From Promethearchaeota archaeon (lineage in GTDB: Archaea; Asgardarchaeota; Lokiarchaeia; Sigyniarchaeales; SOKP01), in assembly GCA_016839745.1 (NCBI GenBank), contig JAEOTS010000131.1, positions 1 to 46,856 of the forward strand: a stretch of 46,856 bases of DNA, written 5' to 3'. Positions 36,851 through 46,504 of the stretch are shown in pieces. The first letter of the stretch is position 1, and every line of letters begins with the position of its first letter. A program made the position numbers and the translations under genes. Below the pieces are notes generated by a model. That model did not search any database and was not told where the DNA came from. It worked only from the letters and a program-made list of their open reading frames with translations.

Positions 36851-38956
36851 ATGTCGGAGCAACACTTCCAAATCTGCCGGTTCTGCCAGCGAAATGTAAA
36901 ATTGGCTTATTATTGTGAGGAATGTGGAACCAGTTGTTGTTCTGATTGTTTACATGAAGAAAAAATTGATTCTTATCTTTGTCAAGATTGTAATTCTAAA
37001 AATATAATCGTCCCAGAATCTGGTAATAAGAGAGCTTGCAAAGATTGCGGAGCAGAAAATATAGTCAGATCTAATCAACTCTTAAAATCTTGCCCTAAGT
37101 GTCACTCTCATCAAATAATAAACATCTATGAGAAAAAAGAAGACCTAGAAAAAATATTTATGGAATTAATCAAAAATTCAAGATCATTTATAGATCCGTT
37201 AAGAGATTTACTAAACGCTCTATATACGTTAAAACAAAAAATTCTAGATGCAAGAGCTCCACCTGTTAAATGTTTTCATTATCCTACTATGGAATTAGAT
37301 TTATTAGCCCTCTTTAAATTATTTATCTACGCAAAGGAAACTCTTATTGAGAAGATTCGCAATTTTGTCCAGCACTTATCAATCAACAAAGAATATTTTT
37401 TTGATATCTACACTCAGCAGAATTCTAATATACGAATTATTGAAGACATTCTTGAGAACTTGAACAGAAGCTATAATTCAATAAAGGATTTTATTGAGAA
37501 TAATGTAAATACCATAGATACTAGCATAGTAAATATTTCAAAGAATTTAGTTTTCATCGACAAGATTACTTTTTATTTCAAAAACTATATTAAATTCCTC
37601 AATTTGGCAGAAGAAGAAAAGCCAGTTTATGCAATATACGCTAAATTAGCTAATGGACTTAATACGCAGGACAAATACAAAAAAAATAAAGGAATTCTTT
37701 TTATAACCAATTTTGACTTATCTTTTGTCCATGAACACGGAAAGCGAAAGAAAAAGCAAGAAGGTATTTTTAAAGCACCTGTAAAGGATTTAACGAAAGT
37801 CCAAATAAGAGGGAAATTGTTTAAAAAACTTTATATTGAATTCCCTTATGGGAGATATGAATTTACGCTTCCCCCAAATTCTATATCGAGAGTATTAGAT
37901 TATCTCTTACTCGCCAGAAGTTTTGATGAGACTATTATTTATGATAAATTGGCTGCTAAGAAACTATATAATATCGAAATCGATTTGAGTGATATCTCAA
38001 ACTATATTGAAGAAGCTATAAATTCCTTCTTTAGTTTAAAATGCCAATATAATAATATTAATTCGAATAATAAAATGGCTGAGTTTAATGTCGCATCATC
38101 GTTGATCAACCAAAATCAGAATAACTTGCCTAATAGAACTCCATTCCAGACTCAAAGCCAAATTATGAATCCTTACAATAATAATATTCCCTTTCCTCTT
38201 TATCAAAACTATAAATACACACCCGAGAATCCAATGCTTTATCAAAATAACATGAGAATTCCTAATCCAAGGATGGGTCAAATCCAAACTCCTGACGATT
38301 TAAATTATTACGGTAACGCAATGAGACAATATTTACCTCCCAATTATAACCAAAATGACTTTTTCTTACAAAATTTTTACGAAACCAACAGGATTCAGAA
38401 CTATGAGCCTAAACGATTTAATAGTGGTTTTGGCAATAATATCTCTGACATCGATGAAAAAAACCTGCTGATGAGAAAATTGGAACAACTACAGAGACAT
38501 GATAAATCCTTCCCTCCTCTAAATGGAATACATAACTCTAATGACTTTTTAACCGATCCTGCTTATTATAACTATAAACAAAAAGATAGAAATATGCCGC
38601 ATTACCGAGAATATTCAAGGAATCACCTTTCGGAATTATTTAGCCGTGATTATGGTTCTAATCATCCAGGCGAAAGCTCTAGCTATCATTCAAAGAAACA
38701 AAGTAAAACAAGACGCAAGAAAATGTTTGACTTGGATAAAGAGAAATATAGTCTAGAGGAAACTTTAAAAGCATTGGACTCTAAATTTGAATCCGGAGAT
38801 ATTTCTGAAATTGATTATTTTAAAAATTTTAAGAATTTACAAAAGGAAATATACATAATTGAAAAAAACATAGAAGCCCTAGACTCTGACATGGAAGATG
38901 AAGAATTTTTAAGAAGTTCAGCTAAAGAATTTGATAGAAAAAGATATTACACTTAA
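36851..38956 (+). CDS. Multidomain ESCRT-I-like protein: Zn-finger cluster, coiled coil, PH(GLUE/GRAM)-like domain, low-complexity region, steadiness box
   Basis: N-terminal CRFC/CEEC/CSDC/CQDC/CKDC/CPKC; LAEEEKPV...KGILFITNFDLSF...KKLYIEF PH-like segment; C-terminal EKYSLEETLKALDSKFESGDISEIDYFKNFKNLQKEIY resembles the TSG101 steadiness box. Confidence 0.7.
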   Translation: MSEQHFQICRFCQRNVKLAYYCEECGTSCCSDCLHEEKIDSYLCQDCNSKNIIVPESGNKRACKDCGAENIVRSNQLLKSCPKCHSHQIINIYEKKEDLEKIFMELIKNSRSFIDPLRDLLNALYTLKQKILDARAPPVKCFHYPTMELDLLALFKLFIYAKETLIEKIRNFVQHLSINKEYFFDIYTQQNSNIRIIEDILENLNRSYNSIKDFIENNVNTIDTSIVNISKNLVFIDKITFYFKNYIKFLNLAEEEKPVYAIYAKLANGLNTQDKYKKNKGILFITNFDLSFVHEHGKRKKKQEGIFKAPVKDLTKVQIRGKLFKKLYIEFPYGRYEFTLPPNSISRVLDYLLLARSFDETIIYDKLAAKKLYNIEIDLSDISNYIEEAINSFFSLKCQYNNINSNNKMAEFNVASSLINQNQNNLPNRTPFQTQSQIMNPYNNNIPFPLYQNYKYTPENPMLYQNNMRIPNPRMGQIQTPDDLNYYGNAMRQYLPPNYNQNDFFLQNFYETNRIQNYEPKRFNSGFGNNISDIDEKNLLMRKLEQLQRHDKSFPPLNGIHNSNDFLTDPAYYNYKQKDRNMPHYREYSRNHLSELFSRDYGSNHPGESSSYHSKKQSKTRRKKMFDLDKEKYSLEETLKALDSKFESGDISEIDYFKNFKNLQKEIYIIEKNIEALDSDMEDEEFLRSSAKEFDRKRYYT

Positions 38957-38990
38957 AACCTCTCTATACTGTTCATCCAGTCTGAAAATA

Positions 38991-39650
38991 TTAGCTACCT
39001 TCTAACTCTTTTCTTAATTTATCTATCTCGTCTTCTAGTTTTGCTTTTGTTCTTATTTCAGGTTCTTCTTCTATCTCGTCAAACTCTGAAATGTAGGCAA
39101 GTTCATCATCCGGTACTTCTGGCATTTGTCCGCCTTGTTCTAAAAGCATTTCCGTCTCAAGTTGGTTTAATTCGTCAGTTACATCAATTGCTAAATCAAT
39201 TTCTGGATCTCCCGCAAGAATTTCAGCAGACTCTTCTATTTCTGCAACATATTCTTCTGAATCTTCTGCAATTTCAGCGATCTTAGTGGGAGCGGCTTTA
39301 CTAGCGATATCTTGTAATTCATCTCTAATTCCGCCCATTAAATCTCCTGTCATTGAAATCATACGGCCTTCATCAATTGCTTCGATCTGGCGTTCTATCT
39401 TAGCCCTAATGTTGTTCGCGCGATCTACCTTCATCTGATACTGTTTATGTTGAATAAGATAGTTTTTAGCTCTGTTTCTCTCTCCTCTCTTTATTGCTAT
39501 TTTAGCGTTCTTTCTTGCAATCTCTGCTCTTTTATTATATGTTTTATTTGCTAACGCGATTTTTCTAATGTGAGCCTTTGCTTTAATTACAAGCTCCTCT
39601 TTTTCTTTATTTTTCCTAGGAAAAAGTTTTCCTTTTAATTTCGCACACAC
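38991..39650 (-). CDS. ESCRT-III Snf7-family protein (Vps20/32/60-like)
   Basis: Basic N-terminal helical hairpin (AKIAIKRGERNRAKNYL), acidic C-terminal half, DVTDELNQLE, MIM2-like MPEVP, terminal helix LEDEIDKLRKEL. Confidence 0.88.
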   Translation of the reverse strand: MCAKLKGKLFPRKNKEKEELVIKAKAHIRKIALANKTYNKRAEIARKNAKIAIKRGERNRAKNYLIQHKQYQMKVDRANNIRAKIERQIEAIDEGRMISMTGDLMGGIRDELQDIASKAAPTKIAEIAEDSEEYVAEIEESAEILAGDPEIDLAIDVTDELNQLETEMLLEQGGQMPEVPDDELAYISEFDEIEEEPEIRTKAKLEDEIDKLRKELEGS

Positions 39651-39789: not shown

Positions 39790-40893
39790 ATGAAAAAAAT
39801 AATTTTAAATTTCGAGAAAAAAACAGATAATTTTAAAGCTTTAATACAAGAAGCTTTGAACATGAATCTCCTTAATATTTTGCTCTCTAAAGAGACTTAT
39901 CCCGAGTTAAAAAATATTGAACGTATTAATACTTTTACTAAAGATACCGAACTGCCTGTTAAAAATTTAATATTTAAAAATCTTGAAAATCTCAAAAGCA
40001 TTATCAAATTTGAAGCAAAAAGAGGAATTATTTTAGAATTAACGACCAAAGCGGATGAACAAAAAGTGATAGAGCTTTCAAAAATTAACGAAGTTGATTT
40101 TATAATTGTATCAGCAAAAGATTGGAAAATTATACCCTTTGAGAATCTTATTGCAAAAATGCATACTAATGATACAGAACTAATTGCCTCGGTTGAGAAC
40201 TTAAAAGAAGCGGAATTAATGTTAAAAACCCTTGAAATCGGCACAGATGGAGTATTAATTACTCCAATAGAAGTCGATGACATCATTAAATTGAAGAAAT
40301 TGTTGGTAAGTGGATACGATATTGATTTAGCAAGAGCAAAAGTTATCGATATACAAAATATTCCCGAAAGCGAAAGAGTGTGTGTTGATACTACTTCATT
40401 ATTAAGTTATGGTGAGGGGATGCTTATTGGAAGCACTGCAAAAGGATTTGCTTTAGTGCATGCTGAGGTATTCGAAACTCAATTTGTTTCCTCAAGACCT
40501 TTCAGAGTTAATGCAGGGGATGTTTCCGCATATATTTTAGTTCCAAGCGATACTAAAGATGAAATATATCAAACGAAATATTTAAGCGAATTAAAAGGGG
40601 GAGATCGAGTTATTGTTGTAAAAACTAATGGTGAGGCGCGAAATATCACAGTAGGTAGAGTTAAGATTGAGACGCGCCCTATGCTAAGATTAGAATTAGA
40701 AATTGATAAGCAAGGTAAAAAAGTTAAAATAAATTATATCGGGCAAAATGCAGAAACGATTCGATTAGTTAACTCTGATGGTGATCCTGTTTCCATTGTA
40801 GATATTAAGGTTGGAGACGAAGTTTTAGTCCACATCGGTCCTGGCGCAACTCATTTTGGTACAAAAATTGATGAAACTATTGTTGAAAAATAA
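39790..40893 (+). CDS. 3-dehydroquinate synthase II (archaeal aroB')
   Basis: DWKIIPFENLIA, LEIGTDGV, RVCVDT, SRPFRVNAG, YLSEL, VGRVKIETRP, QNAETIRL, ATHFG..IDETIVEK. Confidence 0.95.
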   Translation: MKKIILNFEKKTDNFKALIQEALNMNLLNILLSKETYPELKNIERINTFTKDTELPVKNLIFKNLENLKSIIKFEAKRGIILELTTKADEQKVIELSKINEVDFIIVSAKDWKIIPFENLIAKMHTNDTELIASVENLKEAELMLKTLEIGTDGVLITPIEVDDIIKLKKLLVSGYDIDLARAKVIDIQNIPESERVCVDTTSLLSYGEGMLIGSTAKGFALVHAEVFETQFVSSRPFRVNAGDVSAYILVPSDTKDEIYQTKYLSELKGGDRVIVVKTNGEARNITVGRVKIETRPMLRLELEIDKQGKKVKINYIGQNAETIRLVNSDGDPVSIVDIKVGDEVLVHIGPGATHFGTKIDETIVEK

Positions 40894-40908: not shown

Positions 40909-41370
40909 CTAATCACCTTTATAAACAGCAGTAGTGCTTTTTGATTCTTCAAGTTTTACTGTAATTTTTTTATCAGAATAGATCTCTTTTAACTTATCGT
41001 GAACATACTTTGCTAAAAGTTCACTAGTTGTTTCTGGTAATGGCAATAGCTTCACATCCGTTTTAGGAAAAACATAACGCTTATTAGTATTAGTTACAAC
41101 TTCGATTGATTCTAAAGTTTCTGAAATTGTTAGATCGCGAGACAATTTAGGAATCAAAACACGATGATCTAAAGTCTCTGCTATAGTTTTTATTTTTTCT
41201 TTTAATTCAATGAAATCTACAACAAAATAATTCTCGTCTAGTGGAGCCTCTACTTCTACAGATACATAATAATTATGTCCATGAAGCTTTGAGCACTGAA
41301 AGGGCTCTTTTAAAAAATGGGAGGCACTAAACTTTACTTGAGTTGCATTAACTATAGCTTTATAACTCAT
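40909..41370 (-). CDS. queD: 6-carboxy-5,6,7,8-tetrahydropterin synthase / PTPS family (long form)
   Basis: FSASHF, CSKLHGHNY, VVDF, LDHRVLIP, TTSELLA. Confidence 0.88.
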   Translation of the reverse strand: MSYKAIVNATQVKFSASHFLKEPFQCSKLHGHNYYVSVEVEAPLDENYFVVDFIELKEKIKTIAETLDHRVLIPKLSRDLTISETLESIEVVTNTNKRYVFPKTDVKLLPLPETTSELLAKYVHDKLKEIYSDKKITVKLEESKSTTAVYKGD

Positions 41371-41509
41371 AGAATTCTGCTTTCAATTTCTTTTTAAAAT
41401 TTATATATTTTACCCTTAAAAATCATAAAATTTATGTTTTAGATTATTCACTATTTTTTAATTTATATCCTCTAAATATAAATTTATTCCAGAAATAATA
41501 ATCAAAGGA

Positions 41510-43063
41510 ATGTCAGAAAAAATAAAAATTGCAGTTACAGGTGCAAATGGATATCTTGGAATGCAAACGATTAAACTAGCGTTAGAGAGAGATATTTCAG
41601 TAAACGCTATTGTCCGAAGGAGTGAAGTAATTAAATCTGTTAAAAAGAATGGAGTTAAAGCTTTTTTAGTTAAAAACTTTGAAGTAGAAGCCTTAGAGGA
41701 TGCCTTTAAAGGATGTAATGCCGTCATCCATTTTGCTAACATTGTTTGTGGAAGTAGAGCTCTATTTGAAGAAGTTAATATCAACGGGTTAAAAAAAATC
41801 ATTACCGCAGCAGAAAATGTTGGGGTTTCGAGAATAGTTTATCCCTCTGGCCTTGGGGTGGATAAATTCGGCGAAAAAGACTGGGCGAATAATAATTACT
41901 TCTATTCTAAAAACAAAGCAGAAGAATTATTAATTAAAAGTAAGGTTGCTTACATTATTTTTCGACCGTCGTATATTCTTGGTTCAAATGATGAGTTAAT
42001 ACCAGATCTCATTGAACAAATCTATGATGGTAAAGTATACATTGCTGGCGATGGTGAAATACCAATGCAACCTATTTATGTAGAAGATGCAGTAACTGCA
42101 TTTTTAAATGCCTCTCTGGGAAAAGGGGAAAATAATAAAATATATGACTTAGTAGGTTTGCAAACCCTAAATATGAAACGTATAATAGAGATGGTGTGGC
42201 ATTCCATAAAGGCTATAGGTTTGAATATTCCTCCTCCTGTTTATGAATATATCTCTTATGATTCTGCACCTGCAAAGCTAGAAATATGTAAAGAAATGGT
42301 AGATGTAATGAAATGTGATATCATTGCTGATGGTAAAATAGCTGCAGAAGCATTAGGGTTCAAACTATCTCTAGTCGAAGACGCAATTAAGAAAGCCGTG
42401 AAATTAAAATTAACATCCAACAATATAGATCAACAAAACAAAGCTGTATTAATGTTGTCCGGAGGTATCGACTCGGCAACAGCTCTATTTTGGGCTTTGA
42501 GTAAAAATTACGATATAATTGCATTAGCTATGAACTACAAGTGGAGGCCAAAAAAAGAAATAGAGGCTACTAAAAAACTTGTCGAATTAACAGAGGTTCC
42601 TTTAGTTGAAGTATCGGTACCTTATATAATGGGGGCTGTAGATTTAAGGTTCGAGGGTTACCCAATTCCTTCGGCTGAAAATGCTCCTGAAGGTTTCATA
42701 CCTCTAAAGAATTTAATATTTTACTCTATTGCTGCATATTTTGCTAAAGTTTATGGGTGTAATATTATTATTGGTGGACACATTCAAGATGATATCAATA
42801 AATTTTCGGATGTTGGTTTATCTTTTTTTAAATCGTTAGAAAAGATAATTGAAATCTCTAAACATGATAAAGATTTACAAGCTATAGAATTTATAATGCC
42901 CCTATCTAACAAAACAAAGGAGGAAGTGTTTGAATTAGCGAGTGAATTAAAAGTTCCTATTGATGTTACTTGGAGTTGCTACGGAGATTTTGAAGAGCCT
43001 TGTGGCAAATGTTCGTCTTGTATCTCCCGTCAGAAGGCTTTAAAGTTAATTAAAAAGAACTAG
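41510..43063 (+). CDS. Fusion of an atypical SDR/NAD-dependent epimerase domain (aa about 1-300) with a QueC-like 7-cyano-7-deazaguanine synthase domain
   Basis: VTGANGYLG, YFYSK, FRPSYILG, QPIYVEDAV; then AVLMLSGGIDSAT, FIPLKNLIF, TWSCY...PCGKCSSCISR, all in one continuous frame. Confidence 0.85.
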   Translation: MSEKIKIAVTGANGYLGMQTIKLALERDISVNAIVRRSEVIKSVKKNGVKAFLVKNFEVEALEDAFKGCNAVIHFANIVCGSRALFEEVNINGLKKIITAAENVGVSRIVYPSGLGVDKFGEKDWANNNYFYSKNKAEELLIKSKVAYIIFRPSYILGSNDELIPDLIEQIYDGKVYIAGDGEIPMQPIYVEDAVTAFLNASLGKGENNKIYDLVGLQTLNMKRIIEMVWHSIKAIGLNIPPPVYEYISYDSAPAKLEICKEMVDVMKCDIIADGKIAAEALGFKLSLVEDAIKKAVKLKLTSNNIDQQNKAVLMLSGGIDSATALFWALSKNYDIIALAMNYKWRPKKEIEATKKLVELTEVPLVEVSVPYIMGAVDLRFEGYPIPSAENAPEGFIPLKNLIFYSIAAYFAKVYGCNIIIGGHIQDDINKFSDVGLSFFKSLEKIIEISKHDKDLQAIEFIMPLSNKTKEEVFELASELKVPIDVTWSCYGDFEEPCGKCSSCISRQKALKLIKKN

Positions 43064-43112: not shown

Positions 43113-44381
43113 TTGAATAATAAAATGATATATTGGGCTCCGTTATTACATATGTATCAACCTAGTTTTCAAGATAGCGAGGTATTACGACAGATAGATA
43201 AAGAATGCTATAAACCATTATTTAGAATGCTAGATGAGCACGACAATGTTAAAATTAGTCTAAACATTAATGCTGTTCTAATAGAAATGTTAGAAGAATT
43301 TGATCTATACGATACCATAGAATTAATAAAAAATCTGGTGTTTGATAATAAAATTGAGATTGTTGGGACCGCAAAATTCCATCCTATCCTTCCACTTATT
43401 CCACAAAATGAAGCTGAACATCAGATAAAAATAAATGAACAAACTATTAGAAAAGAATTTCAACAATGGAAAAGATTGGGATTTTTCCCTCCTGAAATGT
43501 CAATCAGCTCTCAAGTTGCAAAGTTTATTCGCGCAAAGGGGTATAAATGGGTAATGATGAGCGGTATAGCTTGTCCTATCGAATGGCCTAACGATCAAAT
43601 CTATTCTTCCCCGAATGGTTTAATGTTATTCTTTAGAGATGATATTTTAAGCAATAAAATTGCTTTCAACGACATAACAGCAAAAGAATTTGTCGAACAA
43701 TTAGAGGTAAATTTTAACAACGGAAAACATGAAAAAAATGAGGATAAATTCTGCATAACAGCAATGGATTCAGAAACTTTTGGGCATCACGTAAAGAAAT
43801 TTGAGAGGATATTTTTAAGCAAAACTTTTGAGCTTATTAACAATCGAAAGGAAATAGAAATAGAGTTTATTTCTAATTTAAATAAACATTTTCCTATTCA
43901 TAATGAAAAAATAATCCCAAAAGAATCGAGTTGGAGTACCACTTATGACGATATGAAGTTAAATATTCCATATCCTTTATGGAACCATCCTGATAATCGT
44001 ATTCATTCGCTCTTTTGGAAAATTATGAGGAGCTTAAACAATTTAATGAACTTAATAGAAAATATAGATTTGACATTTGACTGGGAAATAGAGAGACATT
44101 ATAATACCGCTAGATGGTTTTATGATAGAGCTATTTGTTCTGATACAACCTGGTGGGCTAATTATGATCGTGGGATGTGGAGCCCAAATTTGATTTATAA
44201 GGGAATAGAATTACTCATGAAATCTGCGTTGAACGCTCAACTTGCTTTAGTACACGCTAATCAATCTGATTTAGGAGAAGGATATTTTGATTCGATTTCC
44301 TTTTATCATAATTTGATATTAATGGAGCTCTACTCAAGAACTAAAACAATTAAGAAATATAGAAAAGTGAATTCCCAGTAA
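43113..44381 (+). CDS. Glycoside hydrolase family 57 protein
   Basis: LHMYQP, HPILPLIP, GFFPPE (nucleophile), FRD..LSN.IAF, AMDSETFGHH (acid/base), SSW, SD..WW. Confidence 0.9.
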   Translation: MNNKMIYWAPLLHMYQPSFQDSEVLRQIDKECYKPLFRMLDEHDNVKISLNINAVLIEMLEEFDLYDTIELIKNLVFDNKIEIVGTAKFHPILPLIPQNEAEHQIKINEQTIRKEFQQWKRLGFFPPEMSISSQVAKFIRAKGYKWVMMSGIACPIEWPNDQIYSSPNGLMLFFRDDILSNKIAFNDITAKEFVEQLEVNFNNGKHEKNEDKFCITAMDSETFGHHVKKFERIFLSKTFELINNRKEIEIEFISNLNKHFPIHNEKIIPKESSWSTTYDDMKLNIPYPLWNHPDNRIHSLFWKIMRSLNNLMNLIENIDLTFDWEIERHYNTARWFYDRAICSDTTWWANYDRGMWSPNLIYKGIELLMKSALNAQLALVHANQSDLGEGYFDSISFYHNLILMELYSRTKTIKKYRKVNSQ

Positions 44382-44525
44382 AAAAAAAGAGAGCCTATTT
44401 CTTATTCCACAATTTGTTAAATGTTAATATATCATTTTGTTTGTATTAAATAACAATAAAATATATAATTTCTAATTTTATATATTAAACTAAGTACGCA
44501 TTACCAGAATAAAATTACATATATA

Positions 44526-45653
44526 TTGAGAATAATGTCAAATGAGAATGAAAAACAGCGAATAACTAAATTTTGCGTGTATTGTGGCACTACAATCGAA
44601 GAAAATACAGCATATTGCCCTAATCCTAAATGTGGAAAATTAGTGATAAAAATAAAACCGGGTGAAGATAGTCTCAAGAAACAAATATCAACACTAGAAA
44701 CAAAAGAAAAGAAAAAACTATCCCGAAAATGTTCGGGATGTGGGTCTATAATAAGTTCCTCGATATTAGAGCAATGTCCTATATGTGATACCAAATTAGA
44801 AAAAATCCCCGAACAAAAAGGTGTTGATCAAGATAAAGAGCCTCAAAGAAAAACTGGTTATGTTTTTAGAAATAAAAAGCTAGTACCAGAACAAAAATTT
44901 ATCTTAAAACGAACCGAATGGAATTTTAGGGAAGGAATAAGTGTTTTCGGTAACTCCTTAATGGTGTATGTTACGATTCGGTTAATTTTAACTATGATAT
45001 TAACTTTACAGTTAGAATCGACAGATTTAATGGAATTGAACATCACAACATTTTTCTTAAGTCAAATTCCAGAAATTATTTTTGGCGTGTATCCCCTGTA
45101 TTACATTCTTTCAAAAAAACACAAAATCCAAAAATTAGGTTTAACGCTAAAAAACAGATATGTTATAATTGCTTTGATTATTGGAATTATTGGAAGTGCA
45201 GGGTTGATATTAATCGACAACTTTTCATCTACAATAATCACCTTTATGTACAATTCGGGTATCAATTTTTTCGACATTAATGCTTATTTAGAAGAGGAAT
45301 ATCTAATTCTTCGAAATACAGATTTAATTCTTATAGTATTACTTATAGCAGTTATGAGTTTATCAGTAATTTCAATCGAAATCGCTTTTAGAGGCGTCTT
45401 ACATAACACTCTAAAAGCATACTTTGATAATGATTTCCTCGGTAGAACTTCAGCAGTTCTCGTAGTCGCTGTGATTTATTCGGCTCTTTTCCTCTTTTTT
45501 ACGCTGCCTATCGGAATCTATTTCTTTATTCCTAATATCATGGTCTTCCTATTTTTAGGTATCATTTATGAAATTAATAAGAATCTACTAAGTACAATCA
45601 TAGCCAATTTAGCCTATAACATTTTCTTAATTATCTTAATTGTATATTTCTAA
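44526..45653 (+). CDS. Double zinc-ribbon plus CPBP/Abi (Rce1-like) membrane domain protein with degenerate catalytic motifs
   Basis: CVYC..CPNPKC and CSGC..CPIC; TM domain with SIEIAFRGVL, IYSALF, FLGIIYE..KNLLSTIIANLAYN. Probable ATG start at 44535. Confidence 0.75.
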   Translation: MRIMSNENEKQRITKFCVYCGTTIEENTAYCPNPKCGKLVIKIKPGEDSLKKQISTLETKEKKKLSRKCSGCGSIISSSILEQCPICDTKLEKIPEQKGVDQDKEPQRKTGYVFRNKKLVPEQKFILKRTEWNFREGISVFGNSLMVYVTIRLILTMILTLQLESTDLMELNITTFFLSQIPEIIFGVYPLYYILSKKHKIQKLGLTLKNRYVIIALIIGIIGSAGLILIDNFSSTIITFMYNSGINFFDINAYLEEEYLILRNTDLILIVLLIAVMSLSVISIEIAFRGVLHNTLKAYFDNDFLGRTSAVLVVAVIYSALFLFFTLPIGIYFFIPNIMVFLFLGIIYEINKNLLSTIIANLAYNIFLIILIVYF

Positions 45654-45772
45654 TTTTTAGATTAATTTTCATTATCATTTAATATATAAATTTAATAATA
45701 AGAAAAATCAAATATCTCTAGTGGTATTATTAGCAACATATGTTCTTTTAAATACGATACGATTTAAACAGC

Positions 45773-46504
45773 GTGGAGAAAGAGATATTGGGTAAAAAGT
45801 ATTATACCAATAAGGGAAGCAAAGACAACATCATTATATCTATTGCTGGAGCACATGGAGTTGGTAAAACGACCATATTTAATCATTTAAAGAATTTTTT
45901 AGGAGAAAATAGTAAATTTAAATTTTTTCCCGAACGATACAAAAAAATTCCTCCTTTTCCTTTTGGATCTGAAAATAAACAGATTGCTTTCCGTAGCGAA
46001 ATTCACTTTCTTCAACAATTAATAAAGAGAAATAAAAATATTACAAATTTTGACAATATCTATAATGGTAGAGTGATAATTTTAGATAGAACGCCTATCT
46101 GCGTCTTAGTCTATTCAAAAAGCCTTTATCTTAAAGAAAAGGACTATAATCTTATCCTTGACATGTATAAATCGGTAAAGTGGAAAGAAGATTATATCAT
46201 ATATCTTACAGCTCAACCGGATACGATATTAAAAAGAATTATTCAAAGAGGCTCTATTGATAAAATTAGAAGAGAATGGAACGAAGACGATAAAAAATAT
46301 TTGCTAGAAATACTCTCCTACTATAATCAGTTTCTTTTTTCTGAAAATCAAACTAAAAAAGTATTTACACTCGATACAAATAATTTAATTTCGGAAGAGG
46401 TAGTAGAAGAGATTAAACGAATAATTACTGATACCTCCGGATATTCCTTCGACAAAATCGATAATACTCCCTCTACGCAGAAGAATTTAAATGATTTCGT
46501 ATAA
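45773..46504 (+). CDS. Deoxynucleoside kinase / thymidylate kinase-family P-loop kinase
   Basis: IISIAGAHGVGKTT, FFPE, IILDRT, IIYLTA.PDTILKRI..RG. Confidence 0.85.
   Translation: MEKEILGKKYYTNKGSKDNIIISIAGAHGVGKTTIFNHLKNFLGENSKFKFFPERYKKIPPFPFGSENKQIAFRSEIHFLQQLIKRNKNITNFDNIYNGRVIILDRTPICVLVYSKSLYLKEKDYNLILDMYKSVKWKEDYIIYLTAQPDTILKRIIQRGSIDKIRREWNEDDKKYLLEILSYYNQFLFSENQTKKVFTLDTNNLISEEVVEEIKRIITDTSGYSFDKIDNTPSTQKNLNDFV

Follow-up and report, generated by a model that had tools for sequence, protein, structure and literature searches.

An SDR-QueC fusion divergent from queD in Asgard archaea, a possible substitute for QueE and QueC in 7-deazaguanine supply

Why should an archaeal QueC be carried on the same polypeptide as an SDR oxidoreductase, head-to-head with queD? 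The question is raised by a locus of a Promethearchaeota archaeon (Asgardarchaeota; Lokiarchaeia; Sigyniarchaeales; SOKP01; assembly GCA_016839745.1, contig JAEOTS010000131.1), a MAG that is 89% complete. The whole stretch of DNA analyzed, 46,856 nt in length, is referred to as the window. The uninterrupted 517-aa frame joining SDR and QueC, described in an earlier note on this DNA, was verified with both domains complete; the PF06508 match begins at about nt 42440, in line with the QueC start placed there near 42437, and the motifs GANGYLG, YFYSK, SGGIDS and SCY...CGKCSSC are all found in the fusion. The divergent PTPS/QueD frame is likewise present at the distance given (Table 1), and the region between the two genes presumably holds a promoter. 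No Rfam family was found at gathering score anywhere in the window.

Table 1. Coordinates of the queD/SDR-QueC locus in the window
Feature	Coordinates	Strand	Description
SDR-QueC fusion gene	41510..43063	+	517 aa, ATG start, no internal stop; Pfam and NCBIfam domains
Extended SDR domain, residues 1-300	41510..42409	+	TGANGYLG, R36-R37, S113, Y130-x3-K134, QPI, C-terminal CD motif
Inter-domain linker, residues ~302-310	42413..42439	+	Low-confidence block in full-length model
QueC domain, residues 311-512	42440..43045	+	SGGIDS PP-loop, Y343, K400, F432-S-D434, C490-Y491, C498/C501/C504
queD (6-carboxytetrahydropterin synthase type)	40909..41370	-	153 aa, CxxxHGH, PF01242 83 bits
Divergent intergenic region, queD/fusion	41371..41509	.	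139 nt, common to both genes

The fusion is neither a chance read-through nor an assembly artifact, because its architecture recurs in more than 200 clusters, purifying selection acts on both halves and Bathyarchaeia have the two halves as adjacent separate genes. At least 217 clusters at 90% identity contain proteins of 513-570 aa with the SDR-QueC architecture, and such fusions were detected down to 35% identity. Fused or fusion-derived copies are found at 65 independent genome loci, with split adjacent genes at 3 more, and dN/dS is 0.11-0.22 across both fusion halves. Absence from related genomes had been named as the sign of a lost stop codon or an artifact; the fusion is present in the relatives. 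In the full-length AlphaFold2 model (pLDDT 94.9, pTM 0.87), which spans the 9-residue linker, residues 301-310 form the sole low-confidence block between the domains (mean pLDDT 77), and the linker lies where, in the split Bathyarchaeia pair, one gene stops and the next starts. The SDR accompanies this QueC clade in three states: unlinked, adjacent and fused. The fusion, unfamiliar to the earlier note, is missing from the 2026 survey of the QueC family (PF06508; PMC13082051), and no description of it was found in the other literature searched.

From its residues, the SDR half looks catalytically competent and NADP-specific. Its N-terminal part (residues 4 to ~230) matches the NAD_binding_10/Epimerase/NmrA families (PF13460, 83 bits; PF01370, 67 bits). 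The Rossmann motif TGANGYLG is invariant among the aligned fusions, as is the basic pair R36-R37 after strand 2, which we take to be the usual NADP signature. Residues S113, Y130 and K134 are invariant in 20 aligned fusions; in the wider SDR subfamily (29 members) S113 is again invariant, with Y130 and K134 conserved at 90% or more. Selective constraint on this half (dN/dS 0.14-0.17) equals that on QueC, and its domain model has a pLDDT of 96.8 (AlphaFold2). The best sequence match is NDUFA9 (E 3e-11), and Foldseek retrieves NDUFA9 (TMq 0.81-0.82) together with NDP-sugar epimerases and dehydratases (0.73-0.79); relatives of solved structure also include cinnamoyl-CoA reductase, and there are weak matches to NAD_binding_4 and thioester reductases. 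The subfamily, about 300 aa long and found in bacteria and archaea, is marked by the motifs SGLGV, YFxSK, FRPSYIxG, MQPI, DLVGP and CD. We considered Cys80 as a covalent catalytic residue and rejected it, since it shows no conservation outside the fused clade. The unlinked SDR of G165 and L073 lies among glycoside hydrolases and may not be a true functional ortholog.

The active-site core of the QueC half appears essentially canonical. It matches PF06508 with 154 bits (Pfam gathering score 22) and TIGR00364 with 129.6 bits, which falls short of the equivalog cut-off (150.3); with the latter model, sister genome G213 has a standalone QueC scoring 195.9. Among solved structures, it matches B. 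subtilis QueC (3BL5, E 4e-17) and Cap9 (9nto_B, E 1e-7). The PP-loop, S317-G-G-I-D-S322, shows no variation across 57 fused, 3 split and 24 standalone sequences, and the zinc site (C490-Y491, C498, C501 and C504; Cx8CxxCxxC) is also invariant. The mouth of the pocket is remodeled in a clade-specific manner: within YxQxHxxE, Y343 and E350 are invariant, Gln is replaced by Trp, Leu or Tyr and His by Pro throughout the clade (NYx[WLY]RPxxE), and a Leu has become Y405. The deviations from VPGRN to IPLKN and from YPDCR to FSDVG listed in the earlier note hold against 3BL5; the weight given to them was overstated. The window has Lys400 in place of the Arg of VPxRN, an Arg retained in 86% of the fused and all of the split sequences, and at F432-S-D434-V the aromatic residue and Asp of YPDC are kept while Pro and Cys are lost. 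The consensus of the fused family at this position is FPDA, and the standalone Asgard QueCs of families f7, f10 and f29 also carry (F/Y)PDN, those of f29 adjoining QueE. Because standalone archaeal QueCs next to QueE have FPDx too, this replacement of YPDC does not mark new chemistry. Four residues of E. coli QueC are experimentally essential (Y35, R99, Y131 and Y189, with Y131F partly active; PMC13082051), and their counterparts Y343, K400, F432 and Y491 are retained or conservatively replaced.

The two partners of the locus differ in their history. The window's QueD is a vertical ortholog, sharing 62% identity with its counterpart in the queE-queD-queC clusters of the family, whereas the fused QueC shares only 26% with the standalone QueC found there and groups with the split Bathyarchaeia QueC in a separate clade (support 97/93); on these grounds QueD was kept as QueC was replaced and QueE lost. 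In 57 of 68 loci queD adjoins the module (median gap 178 nt), and the divergent arrangement is retained in two different synteny backgrounds. QueD has a dN/dS of 0.09-0.24 in QueE-less genomes, with its catalytic residues conserved, and shows one module-specific change, His23 to Pro, next to the catalytic Cys. Annotation of the conserved neighbors at the 68 loci returned queD, DHQS-II, GH57, DUF166 and others, and no DpdA, extra TGT, QatB or CBASS partner; a transporter gene was not found as a conserved neighbor. A recurrent 287-aa ORF beside queD in the standalone-QueC relatives, considered as an unfused SDR, is a radical-SAM/Fer4_12 QueE. The Bathyarchaeia neighborhoods have no consistent partner: the two amidohydrolases there are non-orthologous, and the Fe-S protein turned out to be a reductive dehalogenase.

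We cross-tabulated the module with QueD and QueE in the 121 genomes of the window's family, which are MAGs and, being relatives, not independent samples: 56 carry an intact fusion (QueD in 54/56, family-type QueE in 0/56), 17 carry family-type QueE (QueD in 17/17, intact fusion in 0/17) and 42 carry neither (QueD in 0/42). Intact fusion and QueE occur together in 0/73 genomes. The window's genus has 23 genomes with the module and 18 without it; within it, nine fusion-less genomes are also without QueD, and in G171 the fusion and queD are decaying together. Three Bathyarchaeia genomes with split SDR and QueC (one of them a complete chromosome) and G165, with an unlinked SDR and a sister QueC, have arcTGT and neither QueD nor QueE. 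Both arcTGT and ArcS are found in nearly all genomes, including relatives without any que genes. As discriminators, ArcS, arcTGT and the two types of GTP cyclohydrolase I tell nothing about the module, because the first two are near-universal and the two cyclohydrolase types jointly cover nearly every genome.

The source genome itself encodes the GTP cyclohydrolase I FolE. Of the genes that the earlier note asked about, arcTGT and ArcS are present and QueF was not found; as for a second canonical queC, the fusion is the genome's sole QueC over the cut-off. No QueE turned up in the source genome, either with four NCBIfam models or with two Asgard QueE proteins as queries, which, together with the 0/56 among its fusion-bearing relatives, speaks against QueE as the supplier of CDG to the fusion. 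As no QueE was found with the fusion, the step to be explained therefore lies upstream of QueC and not, as previously envisaged, downstream. The QueE query from a sister Asgard family proved insensitive, missing QueE in genomes with the canonical cluster, and the search was repeated with a QueE from the family itself. Where fusion genomes are complete, or rated 100% complete, the best "QueE" matches are NrdG. The source genome's two most QueE-like radical-SAM genes were examined as a hidden QueE and rejected, since across the genus neither follows the presence and absence of the module. A separate folE/queE-like/queC-like cluster does occur in one genome with the fusion, G104.

The reading that we tentatively favor is that QueD and SDR-QueC replace QueE and QueC in preQ0 supply, with the SDR as the bridging redox step; the end product, the substrate of the SDR and the replacement of QueE by it are what we infer from this pattern. 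The bifunctional fusion and divergent QueD would form a self-contained two-gene module, acting in one Asgard family in place of canonical QueE and QueC and supplying a 7-deazaguanine base, most likely preQ0. FolE would provide dihydroneopterin triphosphate, and QueD would turn it into 6-carboxytetrahydropterin (CPH4) or something closely related. On the QueD-made intermediate, the extended-SDR half may then carry out an NADP-dependent hydride transfer, a step that would substitute for or bypass the radical-SAM ring contraction of QueE. The QueC half, with its PP-loop and zinc site, would use ATP to activate the carboxylate and form the nitrile; arcTGT would insert preQ0 into tRNA and ArcS convert it towards archaeosine.

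Several observations argue for this replacement. Within the family the fusion is strictly co-inherited with QueD and excludes QueE and canonical QueC, as they exclude it (54/56, 17/17, 0/42), and the vertically inherited QueD contrasts with a fused QueC from a separate clade. The source genome has FolE, arcTGT and ArcS, a single QueC over the cut-off and no QueF that we found; the essential QueC residues are retained or conservatively replaced, the Ser-Tyr-Lys and Arg-Arg residues of the SDR are intact under constraint equal to that on QueC, and the full-length model has a pTM of 0.87. QueD remains under purifying selection without QueE and has acquired a module-specific change; the two QueE-like radical-SAM genes do not track the module, and the best "QueE" matches in the most complete fusion genomes are NrdG. 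Against it stand the Bathyarchaeia split pair and G165, which lack QueD and QueE, so that QueD is not needed everywhere, a pattern that fits salvage better. The NADP-type signature suits a net reductase better than a catalyst of transient oxidation, and because arcTGT and ArcS persist in relatives without que genes, imported preQ0 evidently suffices in the lineage. A non-homologous QueE may lie elsewhere in the genome, where two candidates were tested, and G104 has its additional cluster besides the fusion. We know of no way to convert CPH4 to a 7-deazapurine without radical chemistry, and of the pterin-to-pyrrolopyrimidine ring contraction solely from radical-SAM QueE. The SDR shares its fold with sugar epimerases and dehydratases, which remove and return a hydride. 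By analogy, the NADP-bound SDR could do the same on the tetrahydropterin product of QueD and drive the ring contraction, handing the intermediate straight on to the QueC half; QueD and one fusion would then lead from dihydroneopterin triphosphate to preQ0 by a QueE-independent, non-radical 7-deazaguanine route. This particular chemistry is speculative, and we regard it as improbable.

The absence of QueD and QueE from the Bathyarchaeia with the split pair and from G165 with the unlinked pair, all with arcTGT, would be expected if SDR and QueC served in salvage, turning an imported or recycled 7-deazaguanine derivative (CDG, its amide ADG or some other compound from the breakdown of Q, G+ or modified DNA) into the preQ0 used by arcTGT, with the SDR adjusting the oxidation state and QueC performing the ATP-dependent nitrile step. 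An essentially canonical QueC active site suits such a role, as does the persistence of arcTGT and ArcS in que-less relatives, where uptake of precursor is evidently enough. Recycling leaves unexplained, however, why QueD is retained in the family solely with the fusion or QueE (54/56, 17/17, 0/42), and why it stays under purifying selection and in divergent pairing through two synteny backgrounds; no transporter is among the conserved neighbors, and we know of no salvage substrate that requires an SDR step. We hold it to be possible, if somewhat doubtful.

Two further readings differ in what they ask of the SDR. If the idea of the earlier note is widened, the QueC half would adenylate a carboxylate, of CDG or CPH4, and the SDR, acting as in a carboxylic-acid reductase, would use NADPH to reduce the acyl group so activated. 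The resulting aldehyde, alcohol or amine, for which 7-formyl- or 7-aminomethyl-7-deazaguanine and 6-formyl- or 6-hydroxymethyl-pterin are candidates, would not be destined for archaeosine. An NADP-type SDR with an intact triad and acyl-thioester reductases (cinnamoyl-CoA reductase) among its solved relatives is consistent with this, as are the clade-specific pocket mouth, the His23 to Pro change of QueD and a compact two-domain model that appears compatible with hand-over of an intermediate. Yet the strict mutual exclusion between the fusion and canonical QueC with QueE (0/73 genomes with both intact) is predicted by functional replacement and not by a side branch, the annotated conserved neighbors at the 68 loci included no new acceptor (DpdA, extra TGT or QatB-like), and the module is dispensable within the genus, unlike an essential cofactor route. 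We also know of no close precedent for direct hydride reduction of an acyl-adenylate, and we consider such a product unlikely. At the other extreme, the fusion would be an ordinary preQ0 synthase acting on CDG from an unrecognized QueE analog elsewhere, and the SDR a non-catalytic NADPH-binding, regulatory or structural domain of the NDUFA9 or NmrA-sensor kind. Its closest solved relatives are indeed the NADPH-binding complex I subunit NDUFA9 and a bacterial homolog, for neither of which is catalysis established to our knowledge; the QueC core is canonical and the databases label the protein plain QueC. That this is a mere passenger is nevertheless the least probable of these readings: S113, Y130 and K134 are invariant in the fusions and nearly so in the standalone SDR subfamily, the SDR is as constrained as QueC and travels with its clade whether unlinked, adjacent or fused, QueE searches with the four NCBIfam models and the pair of Asgard proteins found none, and the module's distribution is not followed by either of the two QueE-like radical-SAM genes.

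All 7-deazapurines known to us, from queuosine and archaeosine to toyocamycin-type antibiotics and the deazaguanines in the DNA of phages and bacteria, have been traced to one pathway keyed by QueE. Fusion-bearing archaea probably make or recycle the precursor of archaeosine by an undescribed route: this Asgard family has kept QueD, arcTGT and ArcS, shows no QueE in the searches made and has exchanged its QueC for a form with a reductase attached. Should preQ0 be made by the module, this would represent new enzymology for construction of the deazapurine ring; if the module salvages, it would be the first archaeal enzyme pair dedicated to deazaguanine recycling. Databases already label the fusion protein merely as "7-cyano-7-deazaguanine synthase", an annotation that hides the reductase half, and the archaeosine capability of Asgard and Bathyarchaeia genomes is liable to be misjudged.

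With canonical QueC (3BL5, Pectobacterium 2PG3, E. coli) the fusion shares the fold, PF06508, SGGxDS, Cx8CxxCxxC and the link to queD, and it retains the Tyr of YxQxHxxE, the Asn of VPxRN, the Asp of YPDC and the Cys-Tyr pair. It differs in its 300-residue N-terminal NADP-type SDR, its score under the TIGR00364 cut-off, the loss of Gln and His from YxQxHxxE, the Lys at the R99 position and FSDV for YPDC in the window, its separate clade and its occurrence where QueE was not found. The GAT-QueC fusion of Crenarchaeota, reportedly proposed by Phillips et al. in 2012 as an archaeosine-forming amidotransferase, also joins an archaeal QueC to a second catalytic domain in an archaeosine context; here the partner is an SDR, with no GATase family among the Pfam/NCBIfam matches, and no alternative archaeosine synthase is needed because ArcS is present in the source genome. 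The SDR half finds its best sequence and structure matches in NDUFA9, the 39-kDa complex I subunit, and its alphaproteobacterial homolog (9g83_P), with which it shares the NADP(H)-type signature and YxxxK, but it lies outside a respiratory complex, is fused to a PP-loop ATPase and belongs to the distinct subfamily. Carboxylic-acid reductases and NRPS terminal reductases, a functional analogy only, also combine an ATP-dependent carboxylate-activating module with an NADPH-dependent SDR in one polypeptide; unlike them, the fusion has a PP-loop ATPase in place of an ANL adenylase, has no carrier-protein domain and places the SDR first. The anti-phage proteins QatC and Cap9 are likewise diverged PF06508 members, Cap9 being detectable from the fusion, but the annotated conserved neighbors at the 68 loci include neither QatA, QatB or QatD nor a CBASS CD-NTase or TGT-like Cap10, and the fusion is linked to queD and is much closer to true QueC.

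The SDR-QueC fusion is encoded by a single frame, and ORF calling in the window places queD divergently, 139 nt upstream. Pfam matches assign residues 4 to ~230 to an NAD(P)-binding extended SDR (NAD_binding_10, 83 bits; Epimerase, 67; NmrA, 58) and residues 311–512 to QueC (154 bits). The AlphaFold2 model of the whole protein (pLDDT 94.9, pTM 0.87) has a lower-confidence stretch only in a linker of ~9 residues, and a structure search returned no solved structure covering both halves. Every motif quoted from the two proteins in the earlier note is present, and its reading of VPGRN as IPLKN and of YPDCR as FSDVG agrees with our alignment against B. subtilis QueC (3BL5).

Features of the SDR-QueC locus and its flanks in the window
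Feature	Coordinates	Strand	Details
701-aa protein	36851-38956	+	N-terminal zinc-ribbon-like Cys motifs; N/Q/P/Y-rich low-complexity middle; weak Vps23-core match
Snf7/ESCRT-III family protein	38991-39650	-	PF03357, E 1.4e-9; just upstream of the locus
Flanks with archaeal 3-dehydroquinate synthase II (DHQS-II; 346 bits) and GH57 glycoside hydrolase	39790-40893 and 43113-46504		
queD, PTPS/QueD family	40909-41370	-	153 aa; CxxxHGH motif; Pfam/NCBIfam match
SDR-QueC fusion ORF	41510-43063	+	517 aa, uninterrupted

The neighbouring Snf7, weak Vps23-core and archaeal DHQS-II proteins, together with the source names of homologues, indicate an Asgard archaeon as the source. Two unrelated synteny backgrounds were found over 68 loci, with the divergent queD as the only constant neighbour (57/68 loci, median gap 178 nt); a radical-SAM gene adjoins the fusion at none of the 68. 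Both ESCRT-type genes (36851-39650; clusters c13 and c14) are kept beside the locus in the window-type synteny. The flank genes for DHQS-II, GH57, a zinc-ribbon and CAAX-protease-like membrane protein and a deoxynucleoside-kinase-like P-loop protein are not tied to the fusion in the second background.

The fusion is real. Its two-domain architecture recurs in at least 217 protein clusters (90% identity) of 513–570 aa, 65 of 69 loci from species-representative genomes are fused or fusion-derived (3 are split), and both halves are under similar purifying selection (dN/dS 0.14–0.17 for the SDR vs 0.11–0.22 for QueC), bearing out the genuine single frame described in the earlier note. When 1.84 billion representatives were searched exhaustively, fusions were recovered down to 35% identity (proteins P0123 and P0124), and the ESM Atlas holds two clusters with this architecture, both all-archaeal. 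In three Bathyarchaeia genomes the SDR and QueC are separate, adjacent, same-strand genes, and the junction at one such locus (L067) consists of a TGA stop, three bases and a GTG start. The occurrence of the same pair in split and fused form argues that the two halves work together.

The canonical QueC signature is defined in a PF06508 survey published by the de Crecy-Lagard laboratory in 2026, and Y35, R99, Y131 and Y189 of E. coli QueC are essential by mutagenesis, with Y131F partly active (PMC13082051). Throughout the fusion clade our alignment finds Y343, Y491, the PP-loop and all four zinc cysteines invariant, Arg at position 400 in 86% of sequences (Lys in the window's subclade), and always an aromatic residue (Phe) at position 432. 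On sequence, the catalytic core of the fused QueC is essentially canonical. Clade-specific changes occur at the pocket mouth (YxQxHxxE to NYx[W/L/Y]RPxxE, Leu to Tyr405, and loss of the YPDC Cys). The deviant motifs to which the earlier note drew attention are present, but the YPDC change is not diagnostic, since FPDx also stands in for YPDC in Asgard QueCs that are not fused (families f7, f10 and f29), and those of f29 adjoin QueE. The fused domain scores 129.6 bits, below the TIGR00364 equivalog cut-off of 150.3. A maximum-likelihood tree groups the fused with the split QueCs in a single clade (support 97/93). Its sister is the standalone QueC of genome G165, whose SDR orthologue (38% identity) is unlinked to its QueC, and the family to which the window belongs has its standalone QueC in a distant part of the tree.

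Compared with known systems, the fusion is a QueC homologue that resembles canonical QueC in fold and catalytic core and departs from it in equivalog score and in a pathway context where QueE was not found; three motif features (YxQxHxxE, VPxRN and YPDC) are matched only in part. Unlike GAT-QueC it has no amidotransferase domain. It also differs from QatC and Cap9, being nearer to true QueC and lacking their defence partners. The likeness to carboxylic-acid reductases goes no further than the linkage of an SDR with an ATP-dependent activating module.

The earlier note had suggested looking for further deazaguanine genes in the window's genome (3.5 Mb). ArcTGT, ArcS and FolE are present; neither QueF nor a second QueC over the cut-off was found in this 89% complete assembly, nor was QueE, using four NCBIfam QueE models and two Asgard QueE proteins. 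As candidates for a hidden QueE, the genome's two radical-SAM genes closest to QueE were rejected, since their presence across the genus does not track that of the module. QueD of the window shares 62% identity with that of the family's canonical clusters, vs only 26% for the fused QueC and their QueC, so QueD was inherited vertically, QueC was replaced and QueE was lost. Module QueDs are under purifying selection (dN/dS 0.09–0.24) and retain intact catalytic residues. Residue 23, three before the catalytic Cys, is Pro in 98% of 57 module QueDs and His in 5/5 QueDs of the family's canonical queE-queD-queC clusters (7/10 in other Asgard families), a candidate co-evolved specificity change.

Within the window's GTDB family, sister genera have ordinary queE-queD-queC clusters; in the sister family, the complete genome G213 encodes QueC, QueD and QueE. 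We tabulated co-occurrence across 121 genomes of the window's family, all of them MAGs, in which absence means not found and is never proven. Genomes with the intact fusion (n = 56) have QueD in 54/56 and family-type QueE in 0/56; genomes with QueE (n = 17) have QueD in 17/17 and an intact fusion in 0/17; and those with neither (n = 42) have QueD in 0/42, counts that reflect few evolutionary events among related genomes, not 121 independent trials. Seven further genomes hold fusion fragments only, and nine genomes of the window's genus without a QueC above cut-off, several of them 99–100% complete, are also without QueD. The module is decaying in G171 (C53:5697-6390), where a QueD with five in-frame stops lies beside a 92-aa QueC fragment, and both systems are degraded in G304, with a 133-aa QueC remnant beside queD-queE and an SDR-QueC copy without the PP-loop (L123, L124). 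Within the window's genus, G335 has a canonical cluster, and the fusion-bearing G104 has a second compact cluster (C7:63481-65995) that combines FolE with a QueE-like gene and a divergent gene resembling QueC; this cluster may be a deazaguanine island of mobile or defence type. ArcTGT (101/121) and ArcS (116/121) occur whatever the que state, including in a genus without any que genes, so precursor uptake must be enough for this lineage. Across the family, the two types of GTP cyclohydrolase I are complementary with hardly an exception and distributed independently of the module: FolE (PF01227) occurs in 16/121 genomes, the window's own among them (C104:5831-6361, L120) and most from a single subclade of its genus, GCYH-IB/MptA (PF02649) occurs in 94/121, and almost no genome has both.

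The three split-pair Bathyarchaeia genomes and G165 all contain arcTGT, and PTPS/QueD and QueE were found in none of them, so that outside the window's family the SDR-QueC pair appears to work without a de novo source of CPH4, the QueD product, or CDG, the QueC substrate.

The SDR half belongs to a subfamily of ~300 aa that also stands alone in bacteria and archaea (27–46% identity), with signatures SGLGV, YFxSK, FRPSYIxG, MQPI, DLVGP and a C-terminal CD. Alignment of the fusions shows TGANGYLG, R36-R37, S113, Y130-x3-K134 and QPI to be invariant; an Arg-Arg pair is the usual NADP signature. Cys80 was ruled out as a family-wide catalytic residue because it is confined to the fused clade. The closest solved relatives in both sequence and fold are complex I NDUFA9 and its alphaproteobacterial homologue (E 3e-11; TMq 0.81–0.82), followed by NDP-sugar epimerases, dehydratases and cinnamoyl-CoA reductase. 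A carbohydrate-related ancestry is possible for the wider subfamily. In two Asgard genomes the unlinked SDR orthologue, at L112 (G165:C15) and at L073:9830-10894, has GH16 and GH63/trehalase-like glycoside hydrolases on its flanks, and the GH57 gene of the window lies directly 3′ of the fusion.

We tentatively favor the reading that QueD and SDR-QueC together supply preQ0, or a base very close to it, and do so without QueE; the SDR would then be the obvious enzyme to provide the missing step. Functional replacement is the most economical account of the exclusion with QueE and canonical QueC, the vertical and constrained co-inheritance of QueD, the canonical QueC core and the presence of arcTGT and ArcS throughout. 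The extended-SDR fold serves epimerases and dehydratases that act by transient oxidation, which suggests that the SDR could take a hydride from C6 of CPH4 where QueE abstracts a hydrogen atom; such a step would be without precedent, and we regard a non-radical ring contraction of this kind, argued by analogy, as doubtful. A QueE-independent route, if proven, would be categorically new. Salvage or recycling by SDR-QueC, which draws its best support from the Bathyarchaeia and G165 genomes without QueD, is rather unlikely and does not account for why QueD is retained.

The different, reduced product proposed in the earlier note would suit the coupling of an adenylating domain to an NADPH-dependent SDR, but it fits mutual exclusion with the canonical pathway poorly and we consider it unlikely. 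It is more improbable still that an ordinary QueC carries a passenger NADPH-binding domain and relies on a hidden QueE: the SDR catalytic triad is invariant, SDR and QueC co-occur fused, split and unlinked, and the search for QueE failed.

Our literature search found no published description of an SDR-QueC fusion, the 2026 PF06508 survey makes no mention of an SDR or epimerase fusion (PMC13082051), and public records name the protein simply QueC. Another, apparently bacterial, QueC fusion (P0196, P0218, P0250 and P0270; 458–730 aa) joins an N-terminal ComB-like 2-phosphosulfolactate phosphatase (PF04029) to a canonical QueC (237–247 bits), and one of its clusters carries an Elusimicrobiaceae name.
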